Positions 3,321-18,513 of a stretch of DNA of 64,000 nucleotides are shown piece by piece. A model generated the notes under the pieces. The model had not been told where the DNA came from. It saw only the letters and a list, made by a program, of their open reading frames with translations, and did not search any database. Source of the stretch: a virus; IMG/VR virus record IMGVR_UViG_3300041097_000006; one strand, written 5' to 3'. Every line of letters starts with the position of its first letter. Within the stretch, counting starts at the first letter, position 1. The position numbers and the translations under genes were made by a program.

Positions 3321-4047
3321 GGGGCCTCCGCTCGAAACACCGTAGCGCGGTCTCGCGCGACGCATTGATGACCTCCACCCCGTTGAGCGCCAGGTCCAGC
3401 GCCAACGGCCCGAATTTTTCGATCCACACGTCATACGGAGATTCAACGTTCAGGCCCGCCGGGTGGTCACCGAACCAGTGCTTGCGGCCCCCTTTGCCCC
3501 TCCGCATGTCAAACCCGAGCAGCACCATGCGGGACGCTCCGGCATGGTATGCCAGGTTCATAGCCTGATATCCGGAGTTTCCACCCTCATGGATACGCCC
3601 CGCATCGAGGCACAGGCCCCGCCCGTTCGATGACGGGACGTGGTGCAGGCCGTACTGCGCGGCAGCCTCCGAGTCCCGCGTGTAGCACTTGCCGCGCAGA
3701 CCCGCCGGCAAGTCGGCATGATGCGCACGCCAGAATTTCCCATCGCACGCATACAGCGCGTCCAGCTCCGGCAGCATGCGATACGCATCATTCACACCGA
3801 GCATCTTCCAGCCGCGCGCTTTCGCCGCACGCACGTCCGATTCCACCAGGGACGGGCCGCCCGCGACGATACACACCGTGGCCCGCTCCCACATGCACCG
3901 GTACGCCGGGGCGGATACCAGGCGGCACGCCTGCCCGCGGGCCTCCAGTCGGGCCGCGCGCTGCGGGGTGACGTGCACAACGTCCCCCGGCATCGGCTTG
4001 CCTTCCGTGCCCACGTAGCGCCGCAAGACTCGCATTGCAATTTGCAT
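3301..4047 (-). CDS. DUF115/MAF_flag10 (Maf-like) putative glycosyltransferase with short N-terminal extension
   Basis: CIVAGGPSL...GVNDAY...LYACD..W...GGNSGYQAMNLAYHAGASRMVLLGFDM...VINAS. Confidence 0.7.
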   Translation of the reverse strand: MQIAMRVLRRYVGTEGKPMPGDVVHVTPQRAARLEARGQACRLVSAPAYRCMWERATVCIVAGGPSLVESDVRAAKARGWKMLGVNDAYRMLPELDALYACDGKFWRAHHADLPAGLRGKCYTRDSEAAAQYGLHHVPSSNGRGLCLDAGRIHEGGNSGYQAMNLAYHAGASRMVLLGFDMRRGKGGRKHWFGDHPAGLNVESPYDVWIEKFGPLALDLALNGVEVINASRETALRCFERRPLETVAD

Positions 4048-4104
4048 AACGCCCCCGGGGAAAAAGGGGGCCGGCCCCACAGACCGACCCCAACCCCGCC
4101 CCTG

Positions 4105-5333: not shown

Positions 5334-5936
5334 TTAAAAAGCGTTGAATTCGTTCCGCATAACTTCCGCCAGGCTGGGCGCAGCGTCCCGCCGTCCCGAC
5401 ATCGTGCGGAATCCCCCCGCAGCAATGGTAACCGCCTGGGTCTTGCTAAACCCTGCATCCCGCAGGAATTCCTCAAATTCTCGAATGGTCTTGACCGCAG
5501 ATACGCCGGCCGCCACGTTCATCGGGAACGTCACCAACGAAATTTCCCACAGCTTAAGCGCGGTCAACTTACGCACTCCACCCTTCGTAATCTCCGCCCC
5601 GCCCGGCAGCACGTCGTACCCAAACGACATGCCGCGCACACTGCGCGCCTTCATGTGCGCTAGGGCCACCTGAGAACGGGGATCTTCCAAGACCAGGCGC
5701 CCCTCGAACGCGAGGCCGTGCTTGTCACTCTTGACCCGCGCGGTGCCAATGGGCTGGTCCGAACGATGCTGCCACAGCATGACGACGCGGCCATCGGCGT
5801 TCGCCTCAAACTCCTTGAACGCCCCGGCTTGCACCACGTCGCCGCCGCGGTCCACGTTGCCGTACACTGACGCGTAGCCGGAGAACTCCCCCGCATCGTC
5901 CGCCTTGAACTCCGTTTCGCATGACAAGAATTTCAT
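5334..5936 (-). CDS. Prohead maturation protease (HK97 gp4 / peptidase S78)
   Basis: FSGYASVYGNVDRGGDVV..GAF, MLWQH...PIG, GMSFGY, LWEISLVTFPMN. Confidence 0.96.
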   Translation of the reverse strand: MKFLSCETEFKADDAGEFSGYASVYGNVDRGGDVVQAGAFKEFEANADGRVVMLWQHRSDQPIGTARVKSDKHGLAFEGRLVLEDPRSQVALAHMKARSVRGMSFGYDVLPGGAEITKGGVRKLTALKLWEISLVTFPMNVAAGVSAVKTIREFEEFLRDAGFSKTQAVTIAAGGFRTMSGRRDAAPSLAEVMRNEFNAF

Positions 5937-7168
5937 GCCTCACCCCCTGTTCCGATCTGTGATACCGGCGCCATGTTAACCTGCGCGGTGTAGGCACTCA
6001 TGCCGGGGTCATCGGACGGCGCTAAGTTCTCGCGCACGCGGACTTCATTCCGCGACATGACGCCGTTTTGCAAGAACACCGAGTACAACCCGGCCCGGCC
6101 CGGCGCATCGGCCCGACGCAGCGCGTCCACATCGAACCGGAGGAAATACCGGCCCCGCTGTTCCACGGGCAGCAGCGCCCGGGCAAAGCTTTGCTCGTAC
6201 CGCGTCAGGTACGGTAGGAGCGTGAATTGTAAAAACCCCTCGGCATATTTTTCCAAGCTGTTGTAACTCGCCGAATCCTGGGCCATGACCAGATATGGCG
6301 GCACCCGGTAGATGCGGCATATCTCTTCGACCTCGAACTTCCGTGTCTCAAGAAACTGCGCGTCTTCAAGCGGCATAGTAACCTGCTTGATGTCCATGCC
6401 GCCTTCGAGCAGCTTCACACTATGCGCGTTGGTTAAGCCGGTCCAAAGGTCGTTCAGGATCTTCCGCGCGGTCTCACGCTCTTTGTCGCCCAGCCAGTCC
6501 TTTGCCAGCACCACCGCGCTAGACACCGCACCCTGCTTGAAAAACCGTGCCCCGAAACTCTCGGCGGCCAGGCCGTACCCGATAGCCTGCCGGGCGTACC
6601 CAACCGGCGAGAGCCCCAGGTACCCGTTACTGCCAAACCCTTTGAGGTGCCACACCGCGGACTGCGGTAGCAGCGCACCCCCGCGCCGGTACTCCATCGT
6701 CCCGTCGGACAGCACCCGCGCCGTAATCGTCGGGTCCGGGGTAATTGACGTAGGCATGCCCCGTGTGACCGACCGCTCCACGTAGCTATAGGAATTCCCC
6801 GCGAGACACAGGGCCGATACTTGCGCCTCGCGCAGATCCTGCGGGGTCATCCACAGGTTCGGGCTGCCGTTCAGCAGGCCAGCCAGTTCATGGTCCAAGA
6901 CCGGAACCGCGGTGCCGTCCCTGCGCCGCTCGTAGATACCCCAAGGTAGGCCCGCGATGGTCTCCGACAACAGGCGCACGCATGACCACACAGTGGTCAG
7001 GCGGAGAGCCGTATCCTCCGAGATGGTGATACCCGCGTCGGTATCGACGCCCAGGATGCGCCGAATAAACGCTTCGTCCGTGAGCGAGTACGTGCGGCCC
7101 CCGGCGGCCTTCGTGCCGCCGAACAAGCGCCGCAGCAACCCGCCTACAGGACGGGGTTGTTTAGCCAT
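5933..7168 (-). CDS. Portal protein, HK97 family
   Basis: VWSCVRLLSETIAGLPW, GLSPV.YAR..IG, DAQFLETRKF.VEEICRIYRVPP, GVMSRNEVR..ENL. Confidence 0.96.
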   Translation of the reverse strand: MAKQPRPVGGLLRRLFGGTKAAGGRTYSLTDEAFIRRILGVDTDAGITISEDTALRLTTVWSCVRLLSETIAGLPWGIYERRRDGTAVPVLDHELAGLLNGSPNLWMTPQDLREAQVSALCLAGNSYSYVERSVTRGMPTSITPDPTITARVLSDGTMEYRRGGALLPQSAVWHLKGFGSNGYLGLSPVGYARQAIGYGLAAESFGARFFKQGAVSSAVVLAKDWLGDKERETARKILNDLWTGLTNAHSVKLLEGGMDIKQVTMPLEDAQFLETRKFEVEEICRIYRVPPYLVMAQDSASYNSLEKYAEGFLQFTLLPYLTRYEQSFARALLPVEQRGRYFLRFDVDALRRADAPGRAGLYSVFLQNGVMSRNEVRVRENLAPSDDPGMSAYTAQVNMAPVSQIGTGGEA

Positions 7169-8850
7169 CCAGATATCCCCTTGTCTTCCTCGCTCCGCAC
7201 CGCAGCCCGCGACATGCCCATGAATATGGCAATCGCCCCGTCAATTTTCTGATCCGCCGCTTGCTTGACGGGTGAGTGCAGCCCCTTCGTGCTCGGCTTC
7301 CCAACAACGTTCGACAGGCACCACGTGGTGACCGGGTTCCCGTCGTGGTGCACTCGCCCGTCCACCAGGGCGGCGATGAAGTCGTCAACCGGCAGGGCGA
7401 AATTCCACGGTTTCTGCTGGAACTCTACTATATCTAGGGAATCGCCGACAATCTCCCCCACATCTAGGGCTACCTGCTGCGCGTTGAAAGGGTCGAAGAT
7501 GAATTCCCGGGCCCCGTAGGTGCGCAAGTCCGCGGCCACCTGCTCGGTAATCAGGCCGAAGTCCACCACCGCGCCGAGGGTCGGGGTGAGATGCCCCTCG
7601 CGCACCCACCGTTCATAGCTGGTACGGTTTTTCCCAGGGGCCTCGATGGTCTCCTGGGGAAGCCAGTACCGGCCGAACAGGTAGTAGTGGGGCTTTCCGT
7701 CCAGATACTTACGGAATGTATAGCTGGCAGCGCACAGGTCGATCTTGGACGCCATATCCAGAGACCCGAAACACTCGCACCCCGCGAGGTCCGCCGGCAT
7801 CAACAGCGGGTCCGCTGCGCGCTGCCAGTGCGCCAGGGGGATCAGCTGCGAACCAGCGCCGCACCACGCATTCAGGTGCTTGGTCTTGAACCGCGCCTGT
7901 GTTGCCGGCGTCATGATGGCCGCCCGCTGTTGCGCAATCAAAAAATCCTCGAACACGGAAACCCCGTAGTTGGGGTTCGCCTTCCGCAGCGCGGCCGGGT
8001 CCGTCCAGTCGTCGGCGTCGTCGATGCCGTAGAGCAGCCCGAACGCCTCGGGGTCGTCGATGACACCCTCCAGGATTTTTTTCACCCCCTGTTCATGCTC
8101 GTAGCATGGGCCTGCCAGGTTGTCCCCGGCGGTGGTGATAATCAACAGCAGTGGCTGCTCTCGCGCGCCCATGCCGGTCTGCATCGTGTCCACTAGATCC
8201 GGTACAGCATGCTCATGGTATTCATCAACAATGGCCGCGTGCGGGCTGGCGCCGTCCCCAGGTTTTCCAATGACGGGCTCGAACCGCGAGAAGTCCGCCT
8301 CGATAACCATCGAAGCTTTCAGTACCTCAATCCCGGCCGCCTCCAGCAAGTCCGGCGTTTTCTCGGCCATGAGCCGCGCCGGCCGGAACACCTCCCACGC
8401 CTGCCTTTCCGTTGTGGCACCGCTGTACACCTCCGCACCGTGTTCCCCATCCGCGCAGAAGAGCGCCAGGCCGATGGCCGCGGCCAGTACTGACTTACCG
8501 TTCTTGCGGGGGATTCGCAAGTATGCCGAACGGAAACGGCGCAGGCCGTCCTTATGACGCCGCCATCCGAAAATGTTGCACACGATGAACGACTGCCACG
8601 GTGCCAGTATCAGCATCTGCCGTTGCGCGGCCCACTTGCCCTTGACGTGCGGCAGAGCCTCGATGAACCGACACACGCGCTCGGCTTCGTCGACGTCGAA
8701 ATAGTACGGGTGCCCCGGCGTGTCTGACTCGGCCAGGTCGTTCAGGAACCGTTCGCACGCGCGGACTACCCACGCGCAATTGGGGATGGCCCCGTCGATT
8801 ACACCGTGCGCATAATCGAGTGCTGCCTGGACGTGGGGGCAATCAGCCAC
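7144..8850 (-). CDS. terL: Terminase large subunit (Terminase_1, HK97-like)
   Basis: Walker A IPRKNGKS, Walker B IVDEYHEH, ITTAG, nuclease LDMASKIDL and KIDGAIA. Confidence 0.97.
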   Translation of the reverse strand: MADCPHVQAALDYAHGVIDGAIPNCAWVVRACERFLNDLAESDTPGHPYYFDVDEAERVCRFIEALPHVKGKWAAQRQMLILAPWQSFIVCNIFGWRRHKDGLRRFRSAYLRIPRKNGKSVLAAAIGLALFCADGEHGAEVYSGATTERQAWEVFRPARLMAEKTPDLLEAAGIEVLKASMVIEADFSRFEPVIGKPGDGASPHAAIVDEYHEHAVPDLVDTMQTGMGAREQPLLLIITTAGDNLAGPCYEHEQGVKKILEGVIDDPEAFGLLYGIDDADDWTDPAALRKANPNYGVSVFEDFLIAQQRAAIMTPATQARFKTKHLNAWCGAGSQLIPLAHWQRAADPLLMPADLAGCECFGSLDMASKIDLCAASYTFRKYLDGKPHYYLFGRYWLPQETIEAPGKNRTSYERWVREGHLTPTLGAVVDFGLITEQVAADLRTYGAREFIFDPFNAQQVALDVGEIVGDSLDIVEFQQKPWNFALPVDDFIAALVDGRVHHDGNPVTTWCLSNVVGKPSTKGLHSPVKQAADQKIDGAIAIFMGMSRAAVRSEEDKGISGWLNNPVL

Positions 8851-9274
8851 GTGAGAGCAGCCCTCTGAACGCGTTCGCTCTTGGTGCCACGGGCAGACCG
8901 CGCATGACCTCCCCGCGCCCGGTGGGCGTCAGGCCCAGAGCCCGTAGGATCACGAACAGCCGGTTCAGCAAAGCCGGTTCCATGAACGCCCCATCCGCGC
9001 GGAACCGCGTCAGCAGGACCGCGGCCATCTCCACCACGAAGGCATCCGAAGTTTTCAGGGCCCCGGGAGGGGCGGCCCGTACCAGTTCGGCATAGCACAG
9101 AGCCGACTCCCACCCCATGTGATCGGGCGGAATGGGCTCCAGATCGGGCAAGCCCCCGGGTGCAGGTGTGCCCCCGGGTGCAGGCGGGCCGGAGGGCGCC
9201 GGGGCGGCGCGACGCTGCGGGTTTTTTTTGTACGCCCCCCGCAGCTCTAGGACGTTGGTCGGTAGCCGGCGCAT
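8843..9274 (-). CDS. terS: Terminase small subunit (P27 family)
   Basis: RRLPTNVLELRG N-terminus, LGLTPTGR C-terminal motif, directly upstream of terL. Confidence 0.88.
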   Translation of the reverse strand: MRRLPTNVLELRGAYKKNPQRRAAPAPSGPPAPGGTPAPGGLPDLEPIPPDHMGWESALCYAELVRAAPPGALKTSDAFVVEMAAVLLTRFRADGAFMEPALLNRLFVILRALGLTPTGRGEVMRGLPVAPRANAFRGLLSRG

Positions 9275-9381
9275 CGCAGCATCCATCTAGTGGGTAGACG
9301 GATGCCTAATACTAGATGTAGGGGGGTTATGTCAAGGCGGGTCCCGGGGGAGGGGGCGTTAACCGACGGAATCCGGCGATG

Positions 9382-9435
9382 AACACGTTGCAGCGGACGG
9401 GCCTGACGGCCCTCCGCTGAATTCACACGTTAGGT
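9382..9435 (+). repeat. attC: attC site 1, truncated (L'', L', R' present; R'' missing)
   Basis: AACAC GTTGCAGC GGACGGGCCTGACGGCCCTCC GCTGAAT TCACAC GTTAGGT; the 7 bp where R'' should be read GGCGATG. Confidence 0.75.
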
Positions 9436-9600
9436 TTCTCGGGCACGCTTGAGCGCAGCCCGCAGCCATTCTTTACCGCCGAGGCGGTCGTACTTCGCCT
9501 TCTCGGCTTCCGTTACCCGCTCCCGAATCATGGCCGTCTGAGCCTCTTCTGGTGGCAGTGCGGGGCGTCCGCGTGGCTTCTTTGGGGCCGCCTTAGTCAT
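9430..9600 (-). CDS. Cassette 1: 56-aa ribbon-helix-helix-like DNA-binding protein
   Basis: MTKAAPKKPRGRPALPPEEAQTAMIRERVTEAEKAKYDRLGGKEWLRAALKRARET; paralogue at 12048-12215; TAA stop is the complement of the TTA in R'. Confidence 0.7.
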   Translation of the reverse strand: MTKAAPKKPRGRPALPPEEAQTAMIRERVTEAEKAKYDRLGGKEWLRAALKRARET

Positions 9601-9877
9601 TCGCGCTCCGCAGGTATTCGCGCAGCGTGAGCGTTTCTCCGGCGTGCAGCCGCTTGTTGCACTTCGGACAGGTGTATGTCGAGCCGTGCGAACCGTCGCT
9701 ATGCTCGCAATCAACCGGGTACGGTGCTTCTGACCAGCCGCGCGCCATGTTCCACAGGTCAGGCTCGCCATCGCTGCATGGCGTACCTGGCCGAGATTGC
9801 GCTCCGCAGCACTGGCAAACCGCCCGCACTTTCCCATTCCTCGCTCGCACATAATTGACCGCTTTGCTGGTGCTCAT
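9593..9877 (-). CDS. Cassette 1: zinc-ribbon protein (CxxC...CxxC), unknown function
   Basis: VCQCCG...TYTCPKCN; GGGAG 7 nt before ATG 9877; overlaps the start of the regulator gene. Confidence 0.7.
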   Translation of the reverse strand: MSTSKAVNYVRARNGKVRAVCQCCGAQSRPGTPCSDGEPDLWNMARGWSEAPYPVDCEHSDGSHGSTYTCPKCNKRLHAGETLTLREYLRSAND

Positions 9878-9909
9878 CGTTTGCTCCCGCTTTCGTTGAT
9901 CGTGCATTT

Positions 9910-9955
9910 AGTGTGGCACAACAATTAGCGGTGCGCAAGCATTATTTGTGGCACA
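9910..9955 (-). promoter_or_regulatory. Cassette 1 sigma70-like promoter with two TGTG-G-CACA operator-like palindromes
   Basis: Minus strand TTGCGC-17bp-CACACT; TGTGGCACA at 9912-9920 and 9947-9955; same layout in cassette 6. Confidence 0.6.
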
Positions 9956-9958
9956 AAA

Positions 9959-10016
9959 ACCTAACTCCACATTGCACCGGATCGCCTCCGGCGCCCGGTG
10001 AATTCAGTCGTTAGAG
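9959..10016 (+). repeat. attC: attC site 2 (58 bp, intact)
   Basis: ACCTAAC TCCAC ATT[G]CACC GG[A]TCGCCTCCGGCGCCC GGTGAAT TCAGTC GTTAGAG. Confidence 0.92.
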
Positions 10017-10273
10017 CGCATGCGAATCTTGTCCGCCGCATCCCCAGCCGTTCCGTGTTCGTGGTCGCAGATGTTTGCGCAAACCTCGCGCTCGGCGAGC
10101 ACAGCCAGCCCGACGCAGTTCTCCGCAATCGCTTCTACTTGCTTGCGCCCGTCGCGCTCGCCGGCTTTGTATGCCGCTTGCGCAACCTCTTCCGCGTCCG
10201 CTCTCCCGATCCCATGCCCGGCCATCATGGAGTGGTATCGCTTGCTGCGCTTCTTCCAGTCTGCAAAGCTCAT
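10004..10273 (-). CDS. Cassette 2: 89-aa hypothetical phage protein
   Basis: GGGAG SD; AAYKAGERDG...AEREVCANIC...AADKIRMRSN resembles small phage proteins; ends inside attC2. Confidence 0.7.
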   Translation of the reverse strand: MSFADWKKRSKRYHSMMAGHGIGRADAEEVAQAAYKAGERDGRKQVEAIAENCVGLAVLAEREVCANICDHEHGTAGDAADKIRMRSND

Positions 10274-10302
10274 TTGTCGTTCTCCCTCTTGTCGGCCGTG
10301 CG

Positions 10303-10360
10303 CTCTAACACTACGTTGCAGCCGACCGCCTTCGGCGGCGGCTGAACTTCGACGTTAGAG
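10303..10360 (+). repeat. attC: attC site 3 (58 bp, intact)
   Basis: CTCTAAC ACTAC GTT[G]CAGC CG[A]CCGCCTTCGGCGGCG GCTGAAC TTCGAC GTTAGAG. Confidence 0.95.
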
Positions 10361-10367
10361 CGCTCCA

Positions 10368-11060
10368 TCACTCCGCACCAAAGCTCGCGGCAAGCCGGTC
10401 GTCGAAAGCGTCGTCGCTCTTGTCGCGCAAGATGCCCTCGAAAAACACGTCGGGCTCAGACTCCAGCAGGAAATGCGTCGCGCACGTCCAGGCTTTCGCC
10501 TCATCCTTCGCTTCCGGCGTCATCCTCTCGCTGCGGTCAATGGCCGCGAGGTATTCGCACTTCCGGCACTCTTGGCCGAGTCCGCAGCGCAAATGGTTGT
10601 CGGGTAGCGGCATCGCCGGTCTGGGGTCGTGGCCGCACATCTTGTAGCTGGTCGGCATGCCGCGCTCGCGCTCGTACTGGAACAGCAGCACCATGCGTGG
10701 CACTTCGTCGCTGATCTTCATTGCCGAGTACATCACTCGCGGCCACTCGCCGCCGTTCTCGCGCAGCCGGTCGCTCTCGGCGTTGCAGGCAGCGTGCCAT
10801 GCGTGGTCGCCGCATCCGCGCTGGTCAGTTCCACGGTTCGCCCGTTCCAGCCGCATTCCGCGCATGTACTCGGCGCCTTCCTTCAGCTGCTCCAGCATGT
10901 TGCCGCGGTCTCTGGCATAGCGGCGCAGGTACACGCCGGCCATCAGGCGGTCCTTCTGCTCAGGCGTCATTTTGTCGCGGTCCATGCCGGGCCAGCGCCA
11001 TAGCTCTTCGTGGTCAATCCGGTTCGCCAGTGCTTCCAGTTCTTCGGGTGTTGCTGCCAT
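10368..11060 (-). CDS. Cassette 3: ~230-aa hypothetical protein with Cys/His-rich C-terminal half
   Basis: Long ORF filling the cassette; GGAG 9 nt before ATG 11060; CGH...HLRC...ECRKC...WTCATH. Confidence 0.8.
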   Translation of the reverse strand: MAATPEELEALANRIDHEELWRWPGMDRDKMTPEQKDRLMAGVYLRRYARDRGNMLEQLKEGAEYMRGMRLERANRGTDQRGCGDHAWHAACNAESDRLRENGGEWPRVMYSAMKISDEVPRMVLLFQYERERGMPTSYKMCGHDPRPAMPLPDNHLRCGLGQECRKCEYLAAIDRSERMTPEAKDEAKAWTCATHFLLESEPDVFFEGILRDKSDDAFDDRLAASFGAE

Positions 11061-11089
11061 CTTCAAATTCTCCAAGTTCTACCACCGCG

Positions 11090-11146
11090 CTCTAACTATC
11101 GCTTGCAGCGGACGCCGTACCGGCGCCGCTGAAGCTGGCGTTAGAA
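11090..11146 (+). repeat. attC: attC site 4 (57 bp, intact)
   Basis: CTCTAAC TATCG CTT[G]CAGC GG[A]CGCCGTACCGGCGCC GCTGAAG CTGGC GTTAGAA. Confidence 0.95.
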
Positions 11147-11398
11147 CCCTTGAAACTCGCCCATGCGCTCGAACTGGTCGCGGGTCAGGAATACCGGCGT
11201 CACGGTGTATTCGCAGTCGCTCTCCGCAACCATCGCCTCAGCCTCGGCCGGCTCCATCACGCACGCGGTGCCGTCGTGCTCGACGCGAGAAAATCGCTCC
11301 GTCTTGTAGTCTTCGCACCCCGGCGCATGGTCAGCCGGTGGGTATTTGCCGCCCTTCGTTTCTTGCCAGTCGCGGCACCAGTCCTTGCAGTTGCACAT
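11141..11398 (-). CDS. Cassette 4: 85-aa hypothetical protein (Cys-rich N-terminus)
   Basis: MCNCKDWC...HAPGC...; SD GGAGG comes from the attC5 spacer; TAA stop lies in R' of attC4. Confidence 0.7.
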   Translation of the reverse strand: MCNCKDWCRDWQETKGGKYPPADHAPGCEDYKTERFSRVEHDGTACVMEPAEAEAMVAESDCEYTVTPVFLTRDQFERMGEFQGF

Positions 11399-11401
11399 GG
11401 G

Positions 11402-11489
11402 TTCTAACCCTCCGTTGCAGCAGACGCCGTGAAGCGCCGCAGGTTTATCCAAGCGCCGTCGCGCGGCGCTGCTGAACTACACGTTATGC
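11402..11489 (+). repeat. attC: attC site 5 (88 bp, intact)
   Basis: TTCTAAC CCTCC GTT[G]CAGC AG[A]CGCCG...CGGCGCT GCTGAAC TACAC GTTATGC. Confidence 0.93.
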
Positions 11490-12004
11490 GACGCAGCCCG
11501 AATCTCCCACAGGGTTCGAGCAACCCCGCTTTCCTCGGTGGCATCGCGCTTGTCCCGGAGCTTCACGCTGCTTTCGGCCCAGTTCTTGCGCGGTGCCAAG
11601 TCCTTCGCTTTCACCCAACCGGCAGCGCGGAGGGATGCCCCGCTTTCGTCCTGCCGGGTGTAGGTAATACACCGCCTGTACCCCATGGCTTTCGCCGCCC
11701 GCCAAATCGCCCCATACAACATCGAGTTGGCATTTCTGGTTCCATCGGTGCAAGTGCGGTTAACTTCCAAGGTCAGGCCGTCGTCAAAGCACCGGGCCAC
11801 GGGTCGCCCAGCCGTAGCAACGCCAACCAGTTCGGTGCCCTGGCGCAGCCCAACCCCAAACTTCCAGCCTGTCGGCGGCTTGTTGTGTCGGCGCATCGCG
11901 GCCACGAACGCCTTGGCCTCTGCCAGTGTTATCGGCACCACATGCAAAACCGGCATAACAAGGCGGTCAAGCGGACCTGCCGAAACGGCGCTTTCGCTCA
12001 TCAT
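11477..12004 (-). CDS. Cassette 5: XF1762-family phage protein (GNAT-like fold, inferred)
   Basis: RHNKPPTGWKFGVG, LVGVATAGRPVAR.FDDGLTLEVNRTCTDGTRNANSMLYGA, ITYT..DESGASLRAAGW; start lies inside attC6. Confidence 0.8.
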   Translation of the reverse strand: MMSESAVSAGPLDRLVMPVLHVVPITLAEAKAFVAAMRRHNKPPTGWKFGVGLRQGTELVGVATAGRPVARCFDDGLTLEVNRTCTDGTRNANSMLYGAIWRAAKAMGYRRCITYTRQDESGASLRAAGWVKAKDLAPRKNWAESSVKLRDKRDATEESGVARTLWEIRAASHNV

Positions 12005-12046
12005 TTACCCTTATCTCGCGGCAGTCCGCTTACCTCTACGTTAGGT
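11953..12046 (+). repeat. attC: attC site 6 (94 bp, intact)
   Basis: GCATAAC AAGGC GGT[C]AAGC GGA[C]CTGCCG...CGGCAGTCC GCTTACC TCTAC GTTAGGT. Confidence 0.93.
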
Positions 12047-12051
12047 TTCAT
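12001..12051 (-). CDS. Possible 16-codon coupling mini-ORF through attC6 (MKPNVEVSGLPRDKGK)
   Basis: ATG overlaps the stop of the 12048-12215 gene and its TGA overlaps the ATG of the cassette 5 gene (ATGA at both ends). Confidence 0.4.
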   Translation of the reverse strand: MKPNVEVSGLPRDKGK

Positions 12052-12215
12052 TTCCGCGGCTTCCTGGCCAGCTCGCGCACAAGCCAAGCCTTCCCGCCAC
12101 GCGCTTCGTATTCAGCCTTCTGTGCCTCCGTCACCCGCTCCCGAATCATGGCCGTCTGCGCTTGGTCAGGCGGTAGCGCAGGACGGCCGGGCTGTCGTTT
12201 CTCGGCCTTGGTCAT
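12048..12215 (-). CDS. Cassette 6: 55-aa ribbon-helix-helix-like DNA-binding protein (absent from ORF track)
   Basis: Hand translation MTKAEKRQPGRPALPPDQAQTAMIRERVTEAQKAEYEARGGKAWLVRELARKPRK; 28/36 identical to the cassette 1 regulator core. Confidence 0.75.
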   Translation of the reverse strand: MTKAEKRQPGRPALPPDQAQTAMIRERVTEAQKAEYEARGGKAWLVRELARKPRK

Positions 12216-12403
12216 GCGGCAATCGCATCCACGCCAGGAGCGCGAATCACAAGATCATTGCTGCCGCAATCCGGGCAACAATAGTTGTCCACCTTGGTCA
12301 AGGTGCCATCGGCCTTCCAGCCGGTCCAAGGCTTGTTCTCCCGCTCTTCCAGCGGGAGAATTACGCGGCACTTCATGCAACGGAAATGGGTCTCGGTTTT
12401 CAT
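12212..12403 (-). CDS. Cassette 6: 63-aa zinc-ribbon protein
   Basis: FRCMKCR...YCCPDCGSNDL; GGAGG SD before ATG 12403; ATGA-coupled to the regulator. Confidence 0.7.
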   Translation of the reverse strand: MKTETHFRCMKCRVILPLEERENKPWTGWKADGTLTKVDNYCCPDCGSNDLVIRAPGVDAIAA

Positions 12404-12414
12404 CTTCGCCTCCA

Positions 12415-12558
12415 TTACTTCGGGGCGCGTTGCGTAACTTTGAGCTGACCCTTCAGGTGGCCTTCGAGAATTTCGATCTCGTAGAACATCCCGCCGTGAA
12501 TGGTCATGGTCTTGCCGGTATAGCGGGCTAGGTCGCCGTAGAAGTAGGTGGTTTTCAT
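12415..12558 (-). CDS. Cassette 6: 47-aa hypothetical protein
   Basis: MKTTYFYGDLARYTGK...; GGAG SD; first gene after the cassette promoter. Confidence 0.65.
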   Translation of the reverse strand: MKTTYFYGDLARYTGKTMTIHGGMFYEIEILEGHLKGQLKVTQRAPK

Positions 12559-12589
12559 GTTGCGCTCCGCGTTCGTTGATGGTGTAGTT

Positions 12590-12634
12590 ATTGTGGCGCA
12601 ATAATCAACCATTGTCAAGCGTTTTCGTGGCACA
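12590..12634 (-). promoter_or_regulatory. Cassette 6 sigma70 promoter with two operator-like palindromes
   Basis: Minus strand TTGACA-17bp-CACAAT; TGTGGCGCA at 12592-12600 and CGTGGCACA at 12626-12634. Confidence 0.7.
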
Positions 12635-12637
12635 GAA

Positions 12638-12707
12638 ACCTAACTCCACATTCCACCGGACGGCCCAAATCTGCGCTTTGGTCCTCCGGTGAATTCAGCC
12701 GTTGGGC
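12638..12707 (+). repeat. attC: attC site 7 (70 bp, intact)
   Basis: ACCTAAC TCCAC ATT[C]CACC GG...CC GGTGAAT TCAGCC GTTGGGC; close relative of attC2. Confidence 0.92.
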
Positions 12708-13258
12708 TTCATGAAAACGTACCAGTGCGTTCCGGCCTTCTTGCCGGAGGTGTTGCCGAACAGTGGCCGCACTGGCGTCAGATCCAAGACCTCGCGCACC
12801 TTCACTTGCGTTTCGTTCCACTTGAACACGAGCACGCCGTGAGGCCTCAGCACGCGGAAGCATTCGGCAAAGCCGGCGCGCAGGTCGTCGCGCCAGTCCT
12901 GGCCGAGCTTCCCGTACTTCGCCGCCAGCCAGGAGCGCGGGCCAGCGCGCACCAAATGCGGCGGGTCAAACGCTACGAGGTGGAAGCTCTCTTCCGGGTA
13001 TGGCAGCGCCCGGAAGTCCATCATCACGTCCGGCTCAATGCACAGCGTTCGCGTGCCATCCTCGCGGCCGTGCGAGCGGTCGGTCACGGTCACGGTCTCG
13101 CTGCGCCGGTCTCCGAACACGACGTCCGGGTTCTCGCGGTCAAACCAGAACATCCGGCTACCGCAGCAGGGGTCAAGCACGCGCGGCATGCAGCCCAACC
13201 CGTCGGTCAACACGGACTGCCCGCCAGCAGCGTTCGTTCGCGCGTTGTGGTCGCTCAA
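12695..13258 (-). CDS. Cassette 7: phage SAM-dependent (putative DNA amino-) methyltransferase
   Basis: VLDPCCGSRMFWF, DFRALPY, VAFDPPHL, ECFRVLRPHGVLVFKWNE; SD AAGGAG and TTG start inside attC8. Confidence 0.85.
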   Translation of the reverse strand: MSDHNARTNAAGGQSVLTDGLGCMPRVLDPCCGSRMFWFDRENPDVVFGDRRSETVTVTDRSHGREDGTRTLCIEPDVMMDFRALPYPEESFHLVAFDPPHLVRAGPRSWLAAKYGKLGQDWRDDLRAGFAECFRVLRPHGVLVFKWNETQVKVREVLDLTPVRPLFGNTSGKKAGTHWYVFMKPNG

Positions 13259-13318
13259 CCTTCTTCTCCTTCGGTGGCCGCGCCAGAGGCGGGCAGCCGG
13301 TTACCTTCGACGTTAGAG
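13193..13318 (+). repeat. attC: attC site 8 (126 bp, intact, three extrahelical bases)
   Basis: GCCCAAC CCGTC GGT[C]AAC[A]CGG[A]CTGCCCGCC...GGCGGGCAGCCGGTTACC TTCGAC GTTAGAG. Confidence 0.92.
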
Positions 13319-13510
13319 CGCGTCTTGATCCTGCGCGTAATAGACCTTCCTCGCCTCGGAAATAACTTGCGTAATCGCAGAGCCGAGCCGCGAGGATGGC
13401 CACTTGTTTTCGAGTTGGTCCCGCAGAGCCGTCCACTCCTTCACCGACATGGTGATCTTCACGGTTGCCTCAATCTCGTCAGGCGCTTCAATCATGAATC
13501 TGGCTTTCAT
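13313..13510 (-). CDS. Cassette 8: 65-aa hypothetical protein
   Basis: MKARFMIEAPDEIEATVKITMSVKEW...; GGAG SD; TAA stop in R' of attC8. Confidence 0.7.
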   Translation of the reverse strand: MKARFMIEAPDEIEATVKITMSVKEWTALRDQLENKWPSSRLGSAITQVISEARKVYYAQDQDAL

Positions 13511-13533
13511 TTCTTTCTCCGTAGTTACCTGCG

Positions 13534-13578
13534 CTCTAACATTTGCGTCAACGCGGACGCTTCGCAAGCTCAGCGCCG
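13534..13578 (+). repeat. attC: attC site 9, truncated (R'', L'' and inner stem present; L' and R' missing)
   Basis: CTCTAAC ATTTG CGT[C]AAC[G]CGG[A]CGCT...AGCGCCG, then unrelated sequence in place of GTTACG...GTTRRRY. Confidence 0.75.
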
Positions 13579-13589
13579 ACTGCACCGGC

Positions 13590-13670
13590 ATTGTGGAACC
13601 GAAAATTTGCCTGGGAGCGACGGTTTCCATTCCGCCACGCCACGAAATTTTCACCCCCCTTCCCCTCCGT
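13590..13670 (-). other. Putative cos / packaging-initiation region
   Basis: G-rich run then AAAATTTC...GGAAACCG...AAATTTTCGG right after the HNH stop; in HK97-like phages cos lies between HNH and terS (inference from position). Confidence 0.4.
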
Positions 13671-14115
13671 CGATATTTTCCGAACAGGATCGGCCAATCG
13701 GCATTTCCCGCGGCCCGTCGTCCGGCTGCCGGCTCGTACCGTCACGCTGGCGCCCCGGGTGCCGCTCGTAGCCCCTCTGACGCTCCGCCTCCGACTTGGC
13801 ATCACTGCATGCCCGGCAGAGCCCTTGCGTATTCTCCGGCGTGTCCGAGCCGCCTTCAGCCAGCGGCACGATGTGATCCCGAATCGTCGCCAGTTCGACC
13901 CGTCCCGCCGCCTCACACGCCGCGCACAACGGGGAGTGCCGAAACAGTTCCTCGCGCTGCCGCTGGAGCCATCGCCCGGTTCTCCGCCGGCCCGTTTCGC
14001 TCGCGGTATTTTTCCACGCCGGTTGTTCGTGATCGCCACACCGCGAGGATTTACCGTCCGTTAATTCTGTGCATCCAGGATACGTGCACGGTTTTTTCGG
14101 TAATTTTCTCGCCAC
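13651..14115 (-). CDS. HNH endonuclease (HK97 gp74-like terminase accessory)
   Basis: KPCTYPGC...RC..H, PLCAAC...ATIRDHIVPLAEGGSD...N.QGLCRAC..AKS; GTG start after AGGAGG. Confidence 0.9.
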   Translation of the reverse strand: MARKLPKKPCTYPGCTELTDGKSSRCGDHEQPAWKNTASETGRRRTGRWLQRQREELFRHSPLCAACEAAGRVELATIRDHIVPLAEGGSDTPENTQGLCRACSDAKSEAERQRGYERHPGRQRDGTSRQPDDGPREMPIGRSCSENIDGGEGG

Positions 14116-14196
14116 GGTATTTCCTCCTGAAATATAAATAGGCATCCCGCATACCGTCCGGCCCGCCGTCCGATTCGCCCATCTCCTCCATCCCCT

Positions 14197-14396
14197 TGTC
14201 CGAAACGTCCGATTCACCTCCCCTTTAGGGGGTGAATCGGACGTTTCGGACATAGGGGAATGGATGGGCGTACGATAATCGACGTGACTAATCGGACATG
14301 AATCGTACGCTGATTCGTACGCTGCGAATACGAAAAATCGGACGATAATTATCGTCATGAACGCGGTAATTATGAGCCCGGTTATCATAATTACCG
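14197..14396. promoter_or_regulatory. Cluster of perfect inverted repeats (candidate replication origin or regulatory hub)
   Basis: 22-bp IR 14197-14218/14231-14252, 16-bp palindrome GACGATAATTATCGTC 14341-14356, 12-bp IR 14364-14375/14385-14396; recurrent AATCGGAC and CGTACG. Confidence 0.6.
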
Positions 14397-14675
14397 TACC
14401 GAACCCGCCCGCACCACGGGATACCGGCCCGTCCGCCAAATCGTCCAGGGCGAATTCAACGCCCCCCGTAACCCGCCGGGGGCCAGGTCCAGCAGCGCGC
14501 AACACCACACGAACCCGAACGGCCGGCGGTCGTCGCTGTATACCCACCGCGCGGGCTCCAGTGTGGCCGCCACGTCCGGGGGCATCTGGCGCAGGTTCGC
14601 CTGGTGGTCACGGACGGCCTGGAGGATGACGGCGGCCACCAGGCCCCGGTGAAACGCTATTTGCTCGGCGTTCAT
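14391..14675 (-). CDS. Hypothetical protein (94 aa)
   Basis: LVAAVILQAVRD...ARW..SDD..PFGFVWCC..LDL.P..LR pattern typical of small phage proteins; ATGA-coupled. Confidence 0.7.
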   Translation of the reverse strand: MNAEQIAFHRGLVAAVILQAVRDHQANLRQMPPDVAATLEPARWVYSDDRRPFGFVWCCALLDLAPGGLRGALNSPWTIWRTGRYPVVRAGSVR

Positions 14676-14881
14676 CTATATCCTTCCCGCATCACAATGC
14701 GCTCCTGCGGGTGGGTGAGGCCCTGGAACGCCCTGACAGATCCCGCCGGGATGTGATCGGGGGCATCGAGAGGCCCGTGATACCCGAGGATGTTCGTGTG
14801 GGAACTCCAGGTGGCGATCTTTGGAGACACTCCCTGGAGCCCCCACACGGCCCCGCGGAATAGTTGCTGAGGGTGGATCAT
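14672..14881 (-). CDS. Hypothetical protein (69 aa)
   Basis: ATGA overlaps with neighbours on both sides. Confidence 0.55.
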   Translation of the reverse strand: MIHPQQLFRGAVWGLQGVSPKIATWSSHTNILGYHGPLDAPDHIPAGSVRAFQGLTHPQERIVMREGYR

Positions 14882-15063
14882 TTCGTGCCCCCTGTTGATG
14901 TGTGGAGCTCGATCTCCCCGACTACGCCCCGGCCGGGCGTGCCGACGGTGCTACGGTCGATCCAGGTAAATCGCACCGCGGTAACCCGCAGACCGTAGGT
15001 ATCGGACAGCTCCTGGGCCACCCGACGCAGCGCCTCATGGGCCGCAGCCTCCGCGATTGTCAT
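14878..15063 (-). CDS. Hypothetical protein (61 aa)
   Basis: MTIAEAAAHEALRRVAQEL...; ATGA-coupled. Confidence 0.55.
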   Translation of the reverse strand: MTIAEAAAHEALRRVAQELSDTYGLRVTAVRFTWIDRSTVGTPGRGVVGEIELHTSTGGTK

Positions 15064-15284
15064 AGCCGCCCCCGCCCCGTCATCTGCCCCCGACAGATCG
15101 CTAGGAACGAATGCCCCGTCGATGTCACGGCCAACCGGGCGCCGTCGGTGGCGCCGCGGGCAGGGGTTACCCGCGCATACCCGCCGGCCAGCAGATCCAT
15201 GACCGACTGCCGCGGGAATGTTTCCACCGGGGCCCCGAGGCTCCCGAACCGTGTCAGGCATTGCACTGCGGTCGATATGCGCAT
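15060..15284 (-). CDS. Hypothetical protein (74 aa)
   Basis: MRISTAVQCL...; fills the gap in a tightly packed operon. Confidence 0.5.
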   Translation of the reverse strand: MRISTAVQCLTRFGSLGAPVETFPRQSVMDLLAGGYARVTPARGATDGARLAVTSTGHSFLAICRGQMTGRGRL

Positions 15285-15285
15285 G

Positions 15286-15597
15286 TCATTCTCCCCCGTT
15301 GAGCATTGCAATTCGGTCGCGTCCCTCCGCGTCGATGATCGAGATAGACCCCTCCGGCCAGCGCACCACCCCCACGTGTACCGGGTCGCCTTGCCCATCC
15401 CGGTGGAATACCAGGGGGAGGTCCGGCCGCGCGCCGAGCTCAATCAGTTCGTCCATGTGGTGACGCTGGACCAGGGTCAAGCCATCGACGCAACGCTCAC
15501 GGAACGCATCGGCCCGCCGTTCCAGCCACAGCCACGATGCGACCACTAGGGCGAGCGCCGAGGCAGCGCCCAGGGCGGCGATATGTACGGTTTCCAT
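15286..15597 (-). CDS. Small protein with N-terminal transmembrane helix (103 aa)
   Basis: IAALGAASALALVVASWLWL; AGGAG SD; first gene after the 15661 promoter. Confidence 0.65.
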   Translation of the reverse strand: METVHIAALGAASALALVVASWLWLERRADAFRERCVDGLTLVQRHHMDELIELGARPDLPLVFHRDGQGDPVHVGVVRWPEGSISIIDAEGRDRIAMLNGGE

Positions 15598-15660
15598 GAT
15601 GCACTCCTGATTAGATTAGATTGGATTTACTGCGGTGGCCCTGTTGCTTGCCACGATTCG

Positions 15661-15712
15661 ATTATAGTCACCGTGACTATGGAGTCAAGGATTTTTTTAG
15701 CCACGGTGACTA
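15661..15712 (-). promoter_or_regulatory. sigma70 promoter overlapped by two palindromic operators
   Basis: Minus strand TTGACT-16bp-TATAAT; ATAGTCAC-C-GTGACTAT at 15664-15680 and TAGCCAC-G-GTGACTA at 15698-15712. Confidence 0.75.
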
Positions 15713-15728
15713 ACCTGGGGTTACCGGG

Positions 15729-16175
15729 TCAATAGGACCATTGCAGTAGGTCGTCCCGGGAACAGCCGACGGCCGCGGCCCCGTCGTCGATAGTGGCGAA
15801 CAGGATGTGCCCAGGCATGGACCGCATGCGGGAATGCACGTGAATGGGCTCACCGTCCCGCAGGGCGGACTCCACCATCCGTTTGTTGTACTCCGCGAAC
15901 GACCCGGCGAGGGCAGAGCCGGCCGCCGCCTTGTCGGTACGCGGCCAGGAGTCGATGACCAGCCCCACACGCCGTGTGCCGACGCATTTCGTAACCGGCG
16001 GGGGGCGGAGCGCGTCGAACAGTTCGCGCAGGCGCGCGTCGTCGATGCCGAGGGACAACACCGCGGCCTCGATTTGCGCCGTAGCGTCCCGAACGCCATC
16101 GTCATACGACGCGGCATACAGAGGGGAGACGGCCGCACTCAGGACGGCCAGGATTACCGCAACGATCAGTTTCAT
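15729..16175 (-). CDS. Secreted/periplasmic hypothetical protein (signal peptide)
   Basis: MKLIVAVILAVLSAAVSPLYA signal-like N-terminus; AGGAGG SD. Confidence 0.7.
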   Translation of the reverse strand: MKLIVAVILAVLSAAVSPLYAASYDDGVRDATAQIEAAVLSLGIDDARLRELFDALRPPPVTKCVGTRRVGLVIDSWPRTDKAAAGSALAGSFAEYNKRMVESALRDGEPIHVHSRMRSMPGHILFATIDDGAAAVGCSRDDLLQWSY

Positions 16176-16246: not shown

Positions 16247-18220
16247 CTAACCGCAATCCGCCCCTGGGGCTGCCTCCGGGTCGGGGGCCCACCCTGGGAT
16301 TGTGACGGTCCCGTCCGATAATACTCGCGCCAGACCCCCCTCGATCAGGGAGCGGTGCGCCTCCGCCCACCGGGCGCGGGGCAGCCCACCCTTGCCTCCG
16401 TCTTCCAGACCCCCTGTGGCGGCCATCTGCCAGTCTTTGAGCGTGACGGGCTGCCCGTGAACGAGCAGAGCATCCAGGATGTCCAGGGCGAACTGCTGAT
16501 TGGGGCGCAGCTTGCGGTTCCGGAGGGGCGCCGGGGGCGGAGGCTCGCCCCGTACGATCACCGCGGATCGCAGCAGCTCGCCCGCATCATCCACCCATCC
16601 GAACGGCAGCGTCACGTCACGTAACTGAAACGCATAGTCCGGTGGCACCGCGCCGTCCTTCATCTTCCCGCACGACAGTACAATGGCGTCATCCTCCCGG
16701 CGGGCACTGAACTCCACATCGACGGCCCCCCGGAACGCTCCGGACCCCCTGGCCTGCCCGGTGTTTTTCGCCGTGTGATGCACGACCAGCACCGTGCAGC
16801 CATACCGCTCCCGGATCGCGTCCAGTTCCGCGATGAATCGCCCGGCATCAAGTGCCGAGTTTTCGTCGCCGCCGATAAACGCCCGGGCCAGCGTGTCGAT
16901 CACGATCAGTGCAGGGGGTGCGCTCAGGGCGTCTATCTCCGACGTGAGTTCGGCTACGTCGGCCGGCGACAGGAACCTGACGGCGCGGGCCGAGACCCGC
17001 ACTGGGCAGCCGGCTAGGGGGGTTTTGCGGTCCTCCTCCCACGCCCTCGCGCGGCGGGCAATGCCGGCGTGGCCCTCGCCTGCCACGTACACGACAGGAC
17101 CGGTATTTACCCGGCATCCGTGCCACTCCGTACCGGTCGCAACGGCCAGGGCCATGTCCAGGGCGAGAAACGATTTCCCGGCCCCCGGCTCACCCTGGAG
17201 CATCGCCAGTACACCATGCTCCAGGACTCCCGCAATCTGCCACCGCAGCACCTGCGGCCGGGCGGTTAGCGTGTCCAGTGGGATCAGCAGGCCACCGGCA
17301 GGTATACGGATGGGATCGGCCGCCCGGCGTTGATGCAGCACTCGTTCGCATCGCTGGCACGCGCCGAGTACTGTGGCGCGGGCGTAGTCCTCCCGTTGCC
17401 ACTTTTCGCGCACCAGGGCGGACTGTCGCGCCAGCCGCCACATGCGGGCGGCATCACGTCCGGTCCAGAATGCGAGGTGCGCGAACAGTGCCGCGTCGGC
17501 GCTGGAACGGTCATACGCGTCCCCCGACGGGGACGGGTAGGCCCGCGCCAGCGCGTCGGCGTTGCCCTCCCACAGCTCGCGCAGCGTGGCGCGCTCGCCG
17601 AACACCGCGGCACCGCCGGGACGCGATGACAGCATCATATGGATTAGCTCCGCGTCGTCCGGGGGGCCGGACCAGTCGGGAGATGGACCGCGGGTCCAGT
17701 CGGCTGCGGGGATCGGCGCGGGGGTGGGCGCGAAATACCGCTGCGCCACGGTCGCCAACGGGGCGGAGCAATCCGCGTCCAGGTCGCCCCGCGCGCTGGT
17801 GCCGGTCAGAGCTACGAAACGATCCCGCGTGTAGAGCTCGATCCCGAGGCGGGCGTCCTTGCATCGGTGGGGCGGGGCGGCCCCCTGGTATCGGCCGATG
17901 ATGTGTAGGCCCTCGCCCGATTGCGACACCTCGGCGTAGGCGCCCGGGAACTGCGCCAGCAGATCAACAGCCAGGGGGGAGGGCGTGCCGTCGGTGATAG
18001 CGTGGTCGATATCCAGCAGGAACCGCTGCGAATCGCCGTTTATCACCAGGGCGATACCGCTGGCGTCGCGGAATGGCAGAACCGCCTCGGCGGCGTCCCG
18101 CGTTACCCATTGTGTGGGGTCGTGAGCGTTACATACCGCGCCCGTGTGGGGGGAGATGGGCAGCTTGTCCGTCCGTGTTCCACGGGATACGAGGCGATAC
18201 AGGATGTATTCCGCCGTCAT
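16247..18220 (-). CDS. Primase-polymerase (NrS-1-like AEP) fused to AAA_25/RepA-type helicase
   Basis: LDID...YAEVSQSGEGLH...IELY..DRFVALTG; DRSSADAAL..HLAFWTG; GEPGAGKS, VIDTL, VVHHTAK, RGSGA. Confidence 0.88.
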   Translation of the reverse strand: MTAEYILYRLVSRGTRTDKLPISPHTGAVCNAHDPTQWVTRDAAEAVLPFRDASGIALVINGDSQRFLLDIDHAITDGTPSPLAVDLLAQFPGAYAEVSQSGEGLHIIGRYQGAAPPHRCKDARLGIELYTRDRFVALTGTSARGDLDADCSAPLATVAQRYFAPTPAPIPAADWTRGPSPDWSGPPDDAELIHMMLSSRPGGAAVFGERATLRELWEGNADALARAYPSPSGDAYDRSSADAALFAHLAFWTGRDAARMWRLARQSALVREKWQREDYARATVLGACQRCERVLHQRRAADPIRIPAGGLLIPLDTLTARPQVLRWQIAGVLEHGVLAMLQGEPGAGKSFLALDMALAVATGTEWHGCRVNTGPVVYVAGEGHAGIARRARAWEEDRKTPLAGCPVRVSARAVRFLSPADVAELTSEIDALSAPPALIVIDTLARAFIGGDENSALDAGRFIAELDAIRERYGCTVLVVHHTAKNTGQARGSGAFRGAVDVEFSARREDDAIVLSCGKMKDGAVPPDYAFQLRDVTLPFGWVDDAGELLRSAVIVRGEPPPPAPLRNRKLRPNQQFALDILDALLVHGQPVTLKDWQMAATGGLEDGGKGGLPRARWAEAHRSLIEGGLARVLSDGTVTIPGWAPDPEAAPGADCG

Positions 18221-18513
18221 GTCTCTGGCCCCGTCAGAGAGGCCAACGCCCGGGCGCGTACCCCCTCCGGTAGATCGCGCGCCGACGGGTGCCGCATGGC
18301 GATGGCCCCGGCCAGGAATCGCCACTCCCCGCGGGCTGCCGCATGTGCCACCAGCTCCGTCATGAGTCCGCCCATGGACCCGAAGTGGTACGACACCAGC
18401 GCCGGGGCGCATTTCGCGCGGCGGGCGACGCGCAGCCGCGTGATCCCCGCGGGCCCATACTGTGCTGCCACGTTATACGCAGCCCGCATAATCCGTTCGT
18501 GCGGACGGGTCAC
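18217..18513 (-). CDS. TetR-like helix-turn-helix protein
   Basis: ERIMRAA..VA...G...ITRLRVARRAKCAPALVSYHFGSMGGL. Confidence 0.75.
   Translation of the reverse strand: MTRPHERIMRAAYNVAAQYGPAGITRLRVARRAKCAPALVSYHFGSMGGLMTELVAHAAARGEWRFLAGAIAMRHPSARDLPEGVRARALASLTGPET

Follow-up and report, generated by a model that had tools for sequence, protein, structure and literature searches.

A probable integrase-less integron cassette array at the cos–terS boundary of a lytic-type siphophage genome

Integrons are best known as bacterial capture platforms for antibiotic resistance and, more recently, for anti-phage defence. In chromosomal integrons, inverted cassettes that bear their own promoters (e.g., toxin–antitoxin cassettes) form a minority scattered among sense cassettes. 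Clusters of attC sites lacking an integron integrase (CALINs) have been reported in virulent and temperate phages, with methyltransferases among the cargo; illegitimate capture was proposed for them, and phage attC sites proved usable by the integrase IntI1 (Qi et al. 2023, PMC9892861). Integrase-less phage arrays are, in this sense, an already known kind. The region analyzed here, positions 9382–13578, belongs to a 64,000-nucleotide stretch of viral DNA (IMG/VR record IMGVR_UViG_3300041097_000006; the whole stretch is referred to as the window), which is an exact head-to-tail concatemer of a unit of 38,480 bp. Like the CALINs of Qi et al. 2023 (PMC9892861), the region holds an attC cluster without an integrase and with DNA methyltransferase cargo, and we consider it likely that it is a CALIN, i.e., a fragment of an integron cassette array, lying between the cohesive end (cos) and terS of a lytic-type siphophage.

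The sites were located with two covariance models, R1, built from three phage sites, and R2, built solely from 48 sites of nine bacterial cassette-array loci and run over the phage genome with the filters off. In the 38,480-bp genome R2 returned eight matches, all on the + strand and all in 9369–13321, with scores of 30.8–69.2 bits and E values of 3e-13 to 8e-5. The next-best match elsewhere in the genome scored 11.4 bits, and the array sites reached 30–69 bits on the + strand vs at most 21 bits on the − strand. Read directly, the repeat unit is YCTAAC, 5 nt, GTTGCAG..., a loop, ...CTGAAC, 5–6 nt and GTTAGA.

Seven of the + strand sites are complete, with both the R'' (RYYYAAC) and the R' (GTTRRRY) box present. 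They are site 2 (9957–10019, R2 score 46.4 bits), site 3 (10301–10363, 69.2 bits), which is a textbook hairpin with a single-stranded DNA fold of −24.5 kcal/mol (z −6.2), site 4 (11088–11149, 52.7 bits, fold z −3.6), site 5 with its long variable loop (11400–11492, 45.5 bits), site 6 (11951–12049, 99 nt, 44.2 bits), the R''–L'' half of which overlaps the start of a Mom-like gene, site 7 (12636–12710, 46.3 bits), by alignment a paralogue of site 2, and site 8 (13191–13321, 131 nt, 40.3 bits), the loop of which contains the ribosome-binding site and TTG start of a methyltransferase gene. The two outer sites, also on the + strand, are broken. Site 1 (9369–9438, 30.8 bits) consists of L'', L' and R' (GTTAGGTTTC from 9429) and has no R''; its R'' model positions align to unrelated bases plus a 4-nt insert, its L'', L' and R' are good, and R1 gives a local match only (model positions 7–56). 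Site 9 is a stump at 13531–13564, read directly as R'' (GCGCTCTAAC) and L'' across a 5-nt spacer, without L' or R'; it matches neither R1 nor R2, gives no fold, and continues into unrelated sequence, the DNA end being 47 nt further. Both R2 and direct reading thus bear out an earlier reading of this DNA made from its letters only (the sequence-only reading), in which sites 2–8 were intact, site 1 lacked R'' and site 9 lacked L' and R'. R1 had missed sites 6 and 9 and given site 8 only 9.8 bits, and the idea that sites 6 and 8 are degenerate was rejected when R2 revealed them as complete long sites.

Judged by model and alignment, the window sites are shown to belong to the same attC family as bacterial integron sites. 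Beyond additional sites in the window, R1 picks up long arrays, each on one strand, in loci of bacterial genomes that were retrieved with a short attC pattern, among them an array of Simplicispira psychrophila that adjoins an intI gene scoring 461.7 bits for TIGR02249 (cut-off 265), with intI on the opposite strand and the cassette open reading frames (ORFs) on the strand of the model orientation. The asymmetry that sets polarity (additional unpaired bases in one of the arms, spacers of unequal length) falls on the same arm and with the same spacing as in the intI-adjacent sites of the bacterial locus L142. In a set of 36 distinct sites drawn from six phage sequences, AAC/GTT is invariant; in an alignment of these sites that was fitted to the model, 86.9% of cells pair, the L helix has compensatory changes in 11 of 14 pairs, and none of 500 shuffles attains the observed score. 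A low-depth contig (6x) of one sequencing run, X2, matches the stem of site 3 at 10315–10347, with a single mismatch, and diverges after it; a near-identical attC core is thus carried by a further replicon of the same community.

The junctions between cassettes carry the record of assembly. From site 1 to site 9, the R' of each site is complementary to the R'' of the following site at 9, 10, 10, 10, 7, 10, 9 and 10 of 10 nt (values for sites 1 and 8 were read by eye from the sequence), the R'' of the site 9 stump matching the R' of site 8 in full. R' and R'' of one and the same site are often complementary at just 5–8 of 10 nt. Such a chain is expected if the units all originated as circles that were inserted at G|TT. 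A second line of evidence comes from cassette A, between sites 1 and 2, and cassette F, between sites 6 and 7, which are diverged duplicates: their homology opens two nucleotides ahead of the left R' G|TT and closes at the GTT of the right R', and so covers sites 2 and 7 in full and excludes the stems of sites 1 and 6. The duplicates place the crossover at R' of the + strand, and + is therefore the top strand, independently of the models. Chain and duplication together, as features read from the nucleotides, show that an integron integrase once assembled the array, each cassette being inserted at G|TT.

The outer ends require a different origin. Strand exchange by IntI occurs only at G|TT in R', and the loss of R'' from site 1 and of L' and R' from site 9 is therefore not integrase work; the claim that both breaks are non-canonical is upheld, IntI being unable to remove an R'' or an L'/R' half. 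Excision of a cassette requires two complete flanking attC sites. From this anatomy it would follow, as the sequence-only reading had it, that the inner cassettes are movable by IntI and that the first and the last are fixed. Its further idea that the broken ends protect terS and cos finds no support, since attC x attC recombination removes only the DNA between the sites and intact outer sites would be harmless to the flanks. The locking of the ends is the less important aspect, and the truncations mainly record how the block arrived. The ends are most readily accounted for by uptake of part of a longer array or by deletions at a later stage; illegitimate capture of a block, which had been offered as an alternative only, becomes, with trimming included, the best account of them. 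It is known that attC sites can be lost through hairpin slippage (preprint 10.1101/2022.09.11.507474).

Assembly in situ was considered as well. According to the same preprint (10.1101/2022.09.11.507474), any GTT can act as a weak secondary IntI site, and IntI insertion at many genomic GTT sites has been proposed as an origin of CALINs. A host integrase could, on this model, have put a first cassette into an attG-type GTT between cos and terS, others being added and the ends eroded later, and the R'/R'' chain supplies the integrase-made junctions that it needs within the array. It predicts, however, a left junction that consists of a bare GTT and a right junction with a complete attC, whereas the array starts inside an attC site on the left (L''–L'–R') and stops inside one on the right; it further requires two independent erosions and a pool of antisense cassettes, so far seen in phages. 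We regard it as unlikely. The suggestion that the surviving R' of site 1 serves as an attI-like entry point lacks support: this R' shows no attI feature, no attI-like features were recognised in the region left of site 1, which is the terS promoter region, and any GTT can be a weak secondary site. Between site 1 and terS, at 9329–9300 on the − strand, a promoter of the TTGACA type precedes an 8-bp inverted repeat.

Placed between cos and terS, the array is flanked on its left by terS (8843–9286, − strand, phrog_83), and on the far side of cos by a gene for an HNH endonuclease (13651–14547, − strand, phrog_144 and Pfam HNH). The stretch is present in four runs of one sediment-metagenome study, the contigs of which stop at 13611 in three runs, or at 13628 in the remaining one, and begin again at 13623 in every run; in two runs, Illumina or Nextera adapter sequence is joined directly to the 13611 and 13623 ends. 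Positions 13611 and 13623 are taken from this to be the physical genome ends, which implies an 11-nt cohesive overhang (13612–13622) between the HNH endonuclease gene and the array. In three runs terS, the array and the DNA end stand on one contig of even depth (115x, 128x and 31x), and in the fourth the stretch from terS to the end is covered by overlapping contigs. The source being a metagenome assembly, one may suspect a chimera of phage and bacterial integron DNA, or else chance hairpins; both suspicions are hardly credible. A chimera is rejected because single contigs of uniform depth span terS, the array and the adapter-tagged DNA end, and chance would have to account for eight same-strand model matches in 4 kb with none elsewhere in 38 kb. 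In run X4, the unitig depth over 12362–13611 is 62 vs 32–38 in its neighbours (about twofold), and contigs break at 10664–10693, 11185–11214 and 12362–12391; a second genome in that sample may share the methyltransferase end of the array.

The phage itself has no discernible recombinase. About 60 ORFs, which between them account for nearly all of the coding space, were compared with PHROGs and/or Pfam without a match to an integrase, resolvase or recombinase, and a six-frame phmmer search with five IntI and phage-integrase seeds from other loci found none (best E value 0.65 for a true IntI seed and 0.07 for any seed). Serine recombinases, sought through the Pfam and PHROG scans only, were likewise not found. 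The statement of the sequence-only reading that the unit encodes neither a tyrosine nor a serine recombinase is in line with these searches. A complete integron comprises intI with an adjacent attI and a Pc promoter, and intI is missing here; a CALIN comprises at least two close attC sites on a replicon with no intI, and the complete 38,480-bp unit has eight within 4 kb. Could the phage encode a recombinase of its own that has diverged beyond recognition? Several ORFs of 100–280 aa have no family match (e.g., at 26092–26940, 20841–21488 and 14391–16175), and the only stretches without family assignment are 14.5–16.2 kb (ORFs of at most 148 aa) and 26.1–27.4 kb (two overlapping ORFs). Against this stand the lack of any tyrosine or serine recombinase family match in Pfam or PHROGs, the negative six-frame search, and the fact that those related phages with a recombinase next to such an array carry an ordinary IntI, all of which leaves such an enzyme very improbable.

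PHROG scans identify a siphophage with lytic-type replication genes, namely those for a family A DNA polymerase, a primase/helicase, a helicase, an exonuclease and a Gp2.5-like annealing protein, and with a late operon in the order terS, terL, portal, protease, capsid, connectors, tail and lysis. No close relative was found among the GenBank phages searched, the top protein matches being about 48–51% identical and to gammaproteobacterial siphophages, and Rfam and tRNA scans of the phage gave no matches. Further afield in the genome, three overlapping genes at 1862–4080, between capsid and head–tail adaptor, match PHROGs for a methyltransferase, an unknown family and an alpha-2,3-sialyltransferase, and may form a virion glycosylation module. 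A 98-aa ORF at 18217–18513, between primase and endonuclease, matches the TetR_N DNA-binding domain (Pfam, 1.3e-6). In the non-coding stretch upstream of the HNH endonuclease gene there is a near-perfect 55-nt palindrome (14197–14252) that scores a weak 16 bits with the attC model on both strands; it was rejected as an attC site on account of its symmetry, and could be an origin or a regulatory element.

All 11 ORFs of the array lie on the − strand, with ribosome-binding sites, and are co-directional with the phage late genes, while the top strand of the attC sites is +. The units are therefore not canonical cassettes, in which a promoterless ORF on the attC top strand is followed by its attC; they nevertheless begin and end at G|TT. 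From the cos side, the genes are g1 (13313–13510, 65 aa, no family match), which is the last, fixed cassette; g2 (12695–13258), a DNA methyltransferase (phrog_954, 3.5e-72); g3 (12415–12558, 47 aa, no assigned function); g4 (12212–12403), a 63-aa zinc-ribbon-like protein in twin cassette F; g5 (12048–12215), a small basic protein of 55 aa, paralogous to g11 by alignment; g6 (11477–12004), a Mom-like DNA modification protein (phrog_1384, 3.3e-37); g7 (11141–11398), a Cys-rich protein of 85 aa with no assigned function; g8 (10368–11060, 230 aa), of a family without known function, with homologues that form antisense cassettes in the arrays of other phages, IntI-encoding ones among them; g9 (10004–10273, 89 aa, no assigned function); g10 (9593–9877), a 94-aa zinc-ribbon-like protein in twin cassette A; and g11 (9430–9597, about 55 aa), which is the first, fixed cassette. 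The twin cassettes A and F each carry promoter-like elements of their own. The site in cassette F, at 12618–12590, reads TTGACA, 17 nt, CACAAT and has flanking repeated TGTGGCAC motifs, conserved in cassette A. By family, the cargo of a Mom-like protein, a DNA methyltransferase and small regulators could help the phage to evade restriction.

The g8 family links the array to phages that do encode an integron integrase. It comprises 224 homologous proteins, with no Pfam family. Three temperate-phage contigs, G012 (also L344), L347 and L351, carry IntI together with an antisense array that includes a g8 homologue (82–90% amino-acid identity), at 5357–8724 in G012, 2675–8773 in L347 and 34–2811 in L351; their IntI proteins score 427, 477 and 469 bits, respectively, for TIGR02249, and all array genes run toward intI. 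Each of the three also encodes a separate phage integrase or serine recombinase and adjoins lysis and tail genes. L347 has 11 attC sites on the − strand and all of its independently called genes on the + strand, with the g8 homologue directly beside intI. In all three contigs the orientation of intI relative to attC is canonical and only the cassette genes are flipped. The proposal that the array depends on the integrase of its host therefore stands in part: the phage has no integrase of its own, but the source need not be the host, since three temperate-phage contigs encode IntI. Through the shared g8 family, a prophage is as plausible a supplier of an integrase acting in trans as the host. 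The family also occurs in phages without attC sites (G011 and G014), and one homologue is binned in a metagenome-assembled genome of Sterolibacterium, a mere hint on the host. Apart from g8 and the Mom-like gene, no cassette gene has a homologue inside another array, g7 giving one weak match in L304, outside any array.

Reversed polarity recurs in phage arrays. Nine bacterial arrays have 39 sense and 2 antisense intervals, whereas five phage arrays have 5 sense and 28 antisense ones (Fisher p = 4e-13), as counted with a crude coding-strand classifier; judged by homology, it misclassified at least two phage intervals that it called 'sense'. The 59-kb phage genome G006 (L301) is complete, has terminal repeats and encodes no integrase; its ten attC sites with antisense small genes lie at 11701–15364, in the replication module between the DNA polymerase and the Gp2.5-like and exonuclease genes. 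Two further phage sequences, G013 and G015, have 8 and 13 attC sites, respectively, and Mom-like cassettes with an attC overlapping the gene start are also found in G015 and G016. The literature searched yielded no description of antisense phage arrays; what goes beyond it here is that the antisense polarity is uniform, that it recurs in several phage arrays, and that a shared cassette family provides a connection with phage-encoded IntI.

The array does not appear to be a trait of the lineage, since no attC matches were found in those TerL relatives that were scanned (the best 40 of 80 viral and the best 30 of 80 metagenome loci). The nearest relative found, L219 (capsid 67% and TerL 59% identity), has no attC match and begins about 81 nt upstream of terS with a cos-like sequence resembling the window end at 13611, which weakly suggests that 4.2 kb, the array, were inserted into what had been a short cos–terS spacer.

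Taken as a CALIN, the block would derive from a phage-borne integron of the antisense type and would have entered by illegitimate recombination, or have been stripped of intI, attI and both ends through deletion or hairpin slippage. The seven intact sites could still be recombinable if IntI were supplied in trans by the host or by a resident prophage, which would permit loss or swap of the six inner cassettes (sites 2–8), the two outer ones staying fixed; such exchange may be ongoing. In a wider proposal, which we hold tentatively and with slightly less than even confidence, phages may maintain an integron system of their own: an antisense cassette pool with DNA-modification and counter-defence genes, IntI from some temperate phages, and integrase-less arrays of lytic-type phages that are reshuffled when the infected cell holds a host integron or a prophage of this kind, with reversed polarity as an orientation barrier. 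If so, bacterial cassettes would be silent in a phage array, and only phage-type cassettes would be retained.

A number of observations weigh against the account of the array as a CALIN of this origin. The contigs of the four runs contain no cassette-deletion joints and no variants, although contigs hide rare variants. A blastn comparison with other phage arrays finds homology for g8 and the Mom-like gene, at 66–82% and in coding sequence only, and therefore no recent transfer is documented. The capsid protein had no match in 400 genomes of the class of G001 that would have pointed to the host and its integron status. The phage arrays used for comparison were partly picked through homology to the window array, and the sense arrays of the viral contigs G007 and G008 mean that the antisense rule is not universal. 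The comparison with L219 is one of a single contig end with a resemblance of 12 of 16 nt, and the anti-restriction role of the cargo is suggested by family names only.

Several of these points would suit a frozen relic, captured once and with its recombination over, in which the hairpins persist for the sake of gene expression, as ribosome-binding sites and starts in sites 6 and 8, as promoter or operator, or as stem-loops in mRNA. No integrase is encoded, deletion variants are lacking as described, sites 6 and 8 are interwoven with gene starts, cassettes A and F bear their own promoter-like elements, and cassette homologues elsewhere share the modest DNA identity given above. A role in expression, however, would not need integrase geometry, and seven sites retain their AAC/GTT cores, spacers, one-arm extra bases and paired L boxes, with scores that match those of bacterial sites; the same gene families, moreover, stand in arrays beside live intI genes of other phages. 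A relic is rather doubtful, and a CALIN that could still recombine is the reading we prefer.

Compared with the systems described so far, the array combines familiar and unfamiliar traits. It shares with bacterial CALINs and sedentary chromosomal integrons (IntegronFinder definition, Cury et al. 2016; here the loci L099 and L142) the attC family and the G|TT logic of its cassettes, but in the bacterial arrays 39 of 41 intervals have their gene on the attC top strand, whereas in the window none has, and the replicon is a lytic-type phage. With the inverted cassettes of chromosomal integrons it has in common genes antisense to attC and, in A and F, internal promoter-like elements; unlike in those integrons, the whole array is antisense. 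The integrons of G012, L347 and L351 resemble it in their antisense cassettes, the g8 family and small genes that include a DNA methyltransferase (MT-A70 in L347). They are, however, those of temperate phages with intI and a separate phage integrase, neither of which the window phage has, and they lie beside lysis genes and not at a cos–terS boundary.

The CALINs detailed by Qi et al. 2023 (PMC9892861) are short (e.g., three attC sites in phage TJE1), and two have the typical bacterial orientation. The window array differs from them in its eight sites and a stump, its unbroken R'/R'' chain, its truncated outer sites next to cos, and the antisense orientation of all its genes. Integrase-less attC clusters of phages have thus been reported as short curiosities, and the present one is long and structurally intact, with junctions that, by their sequence, prove integrase assembly; to these it adds a cargo that looks like counter-defence (a Mom-like protein and a DNA methyltransferase) and a reversed polarity common to several phage arrays, some of them beside a phage-encoded IntI. 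If confirmed, this would mean that phages use the integron mechanism on their own side of the arms race, and with defined sites and defined IntI genes at hand, the question of who supplies the integrase becomes testable.

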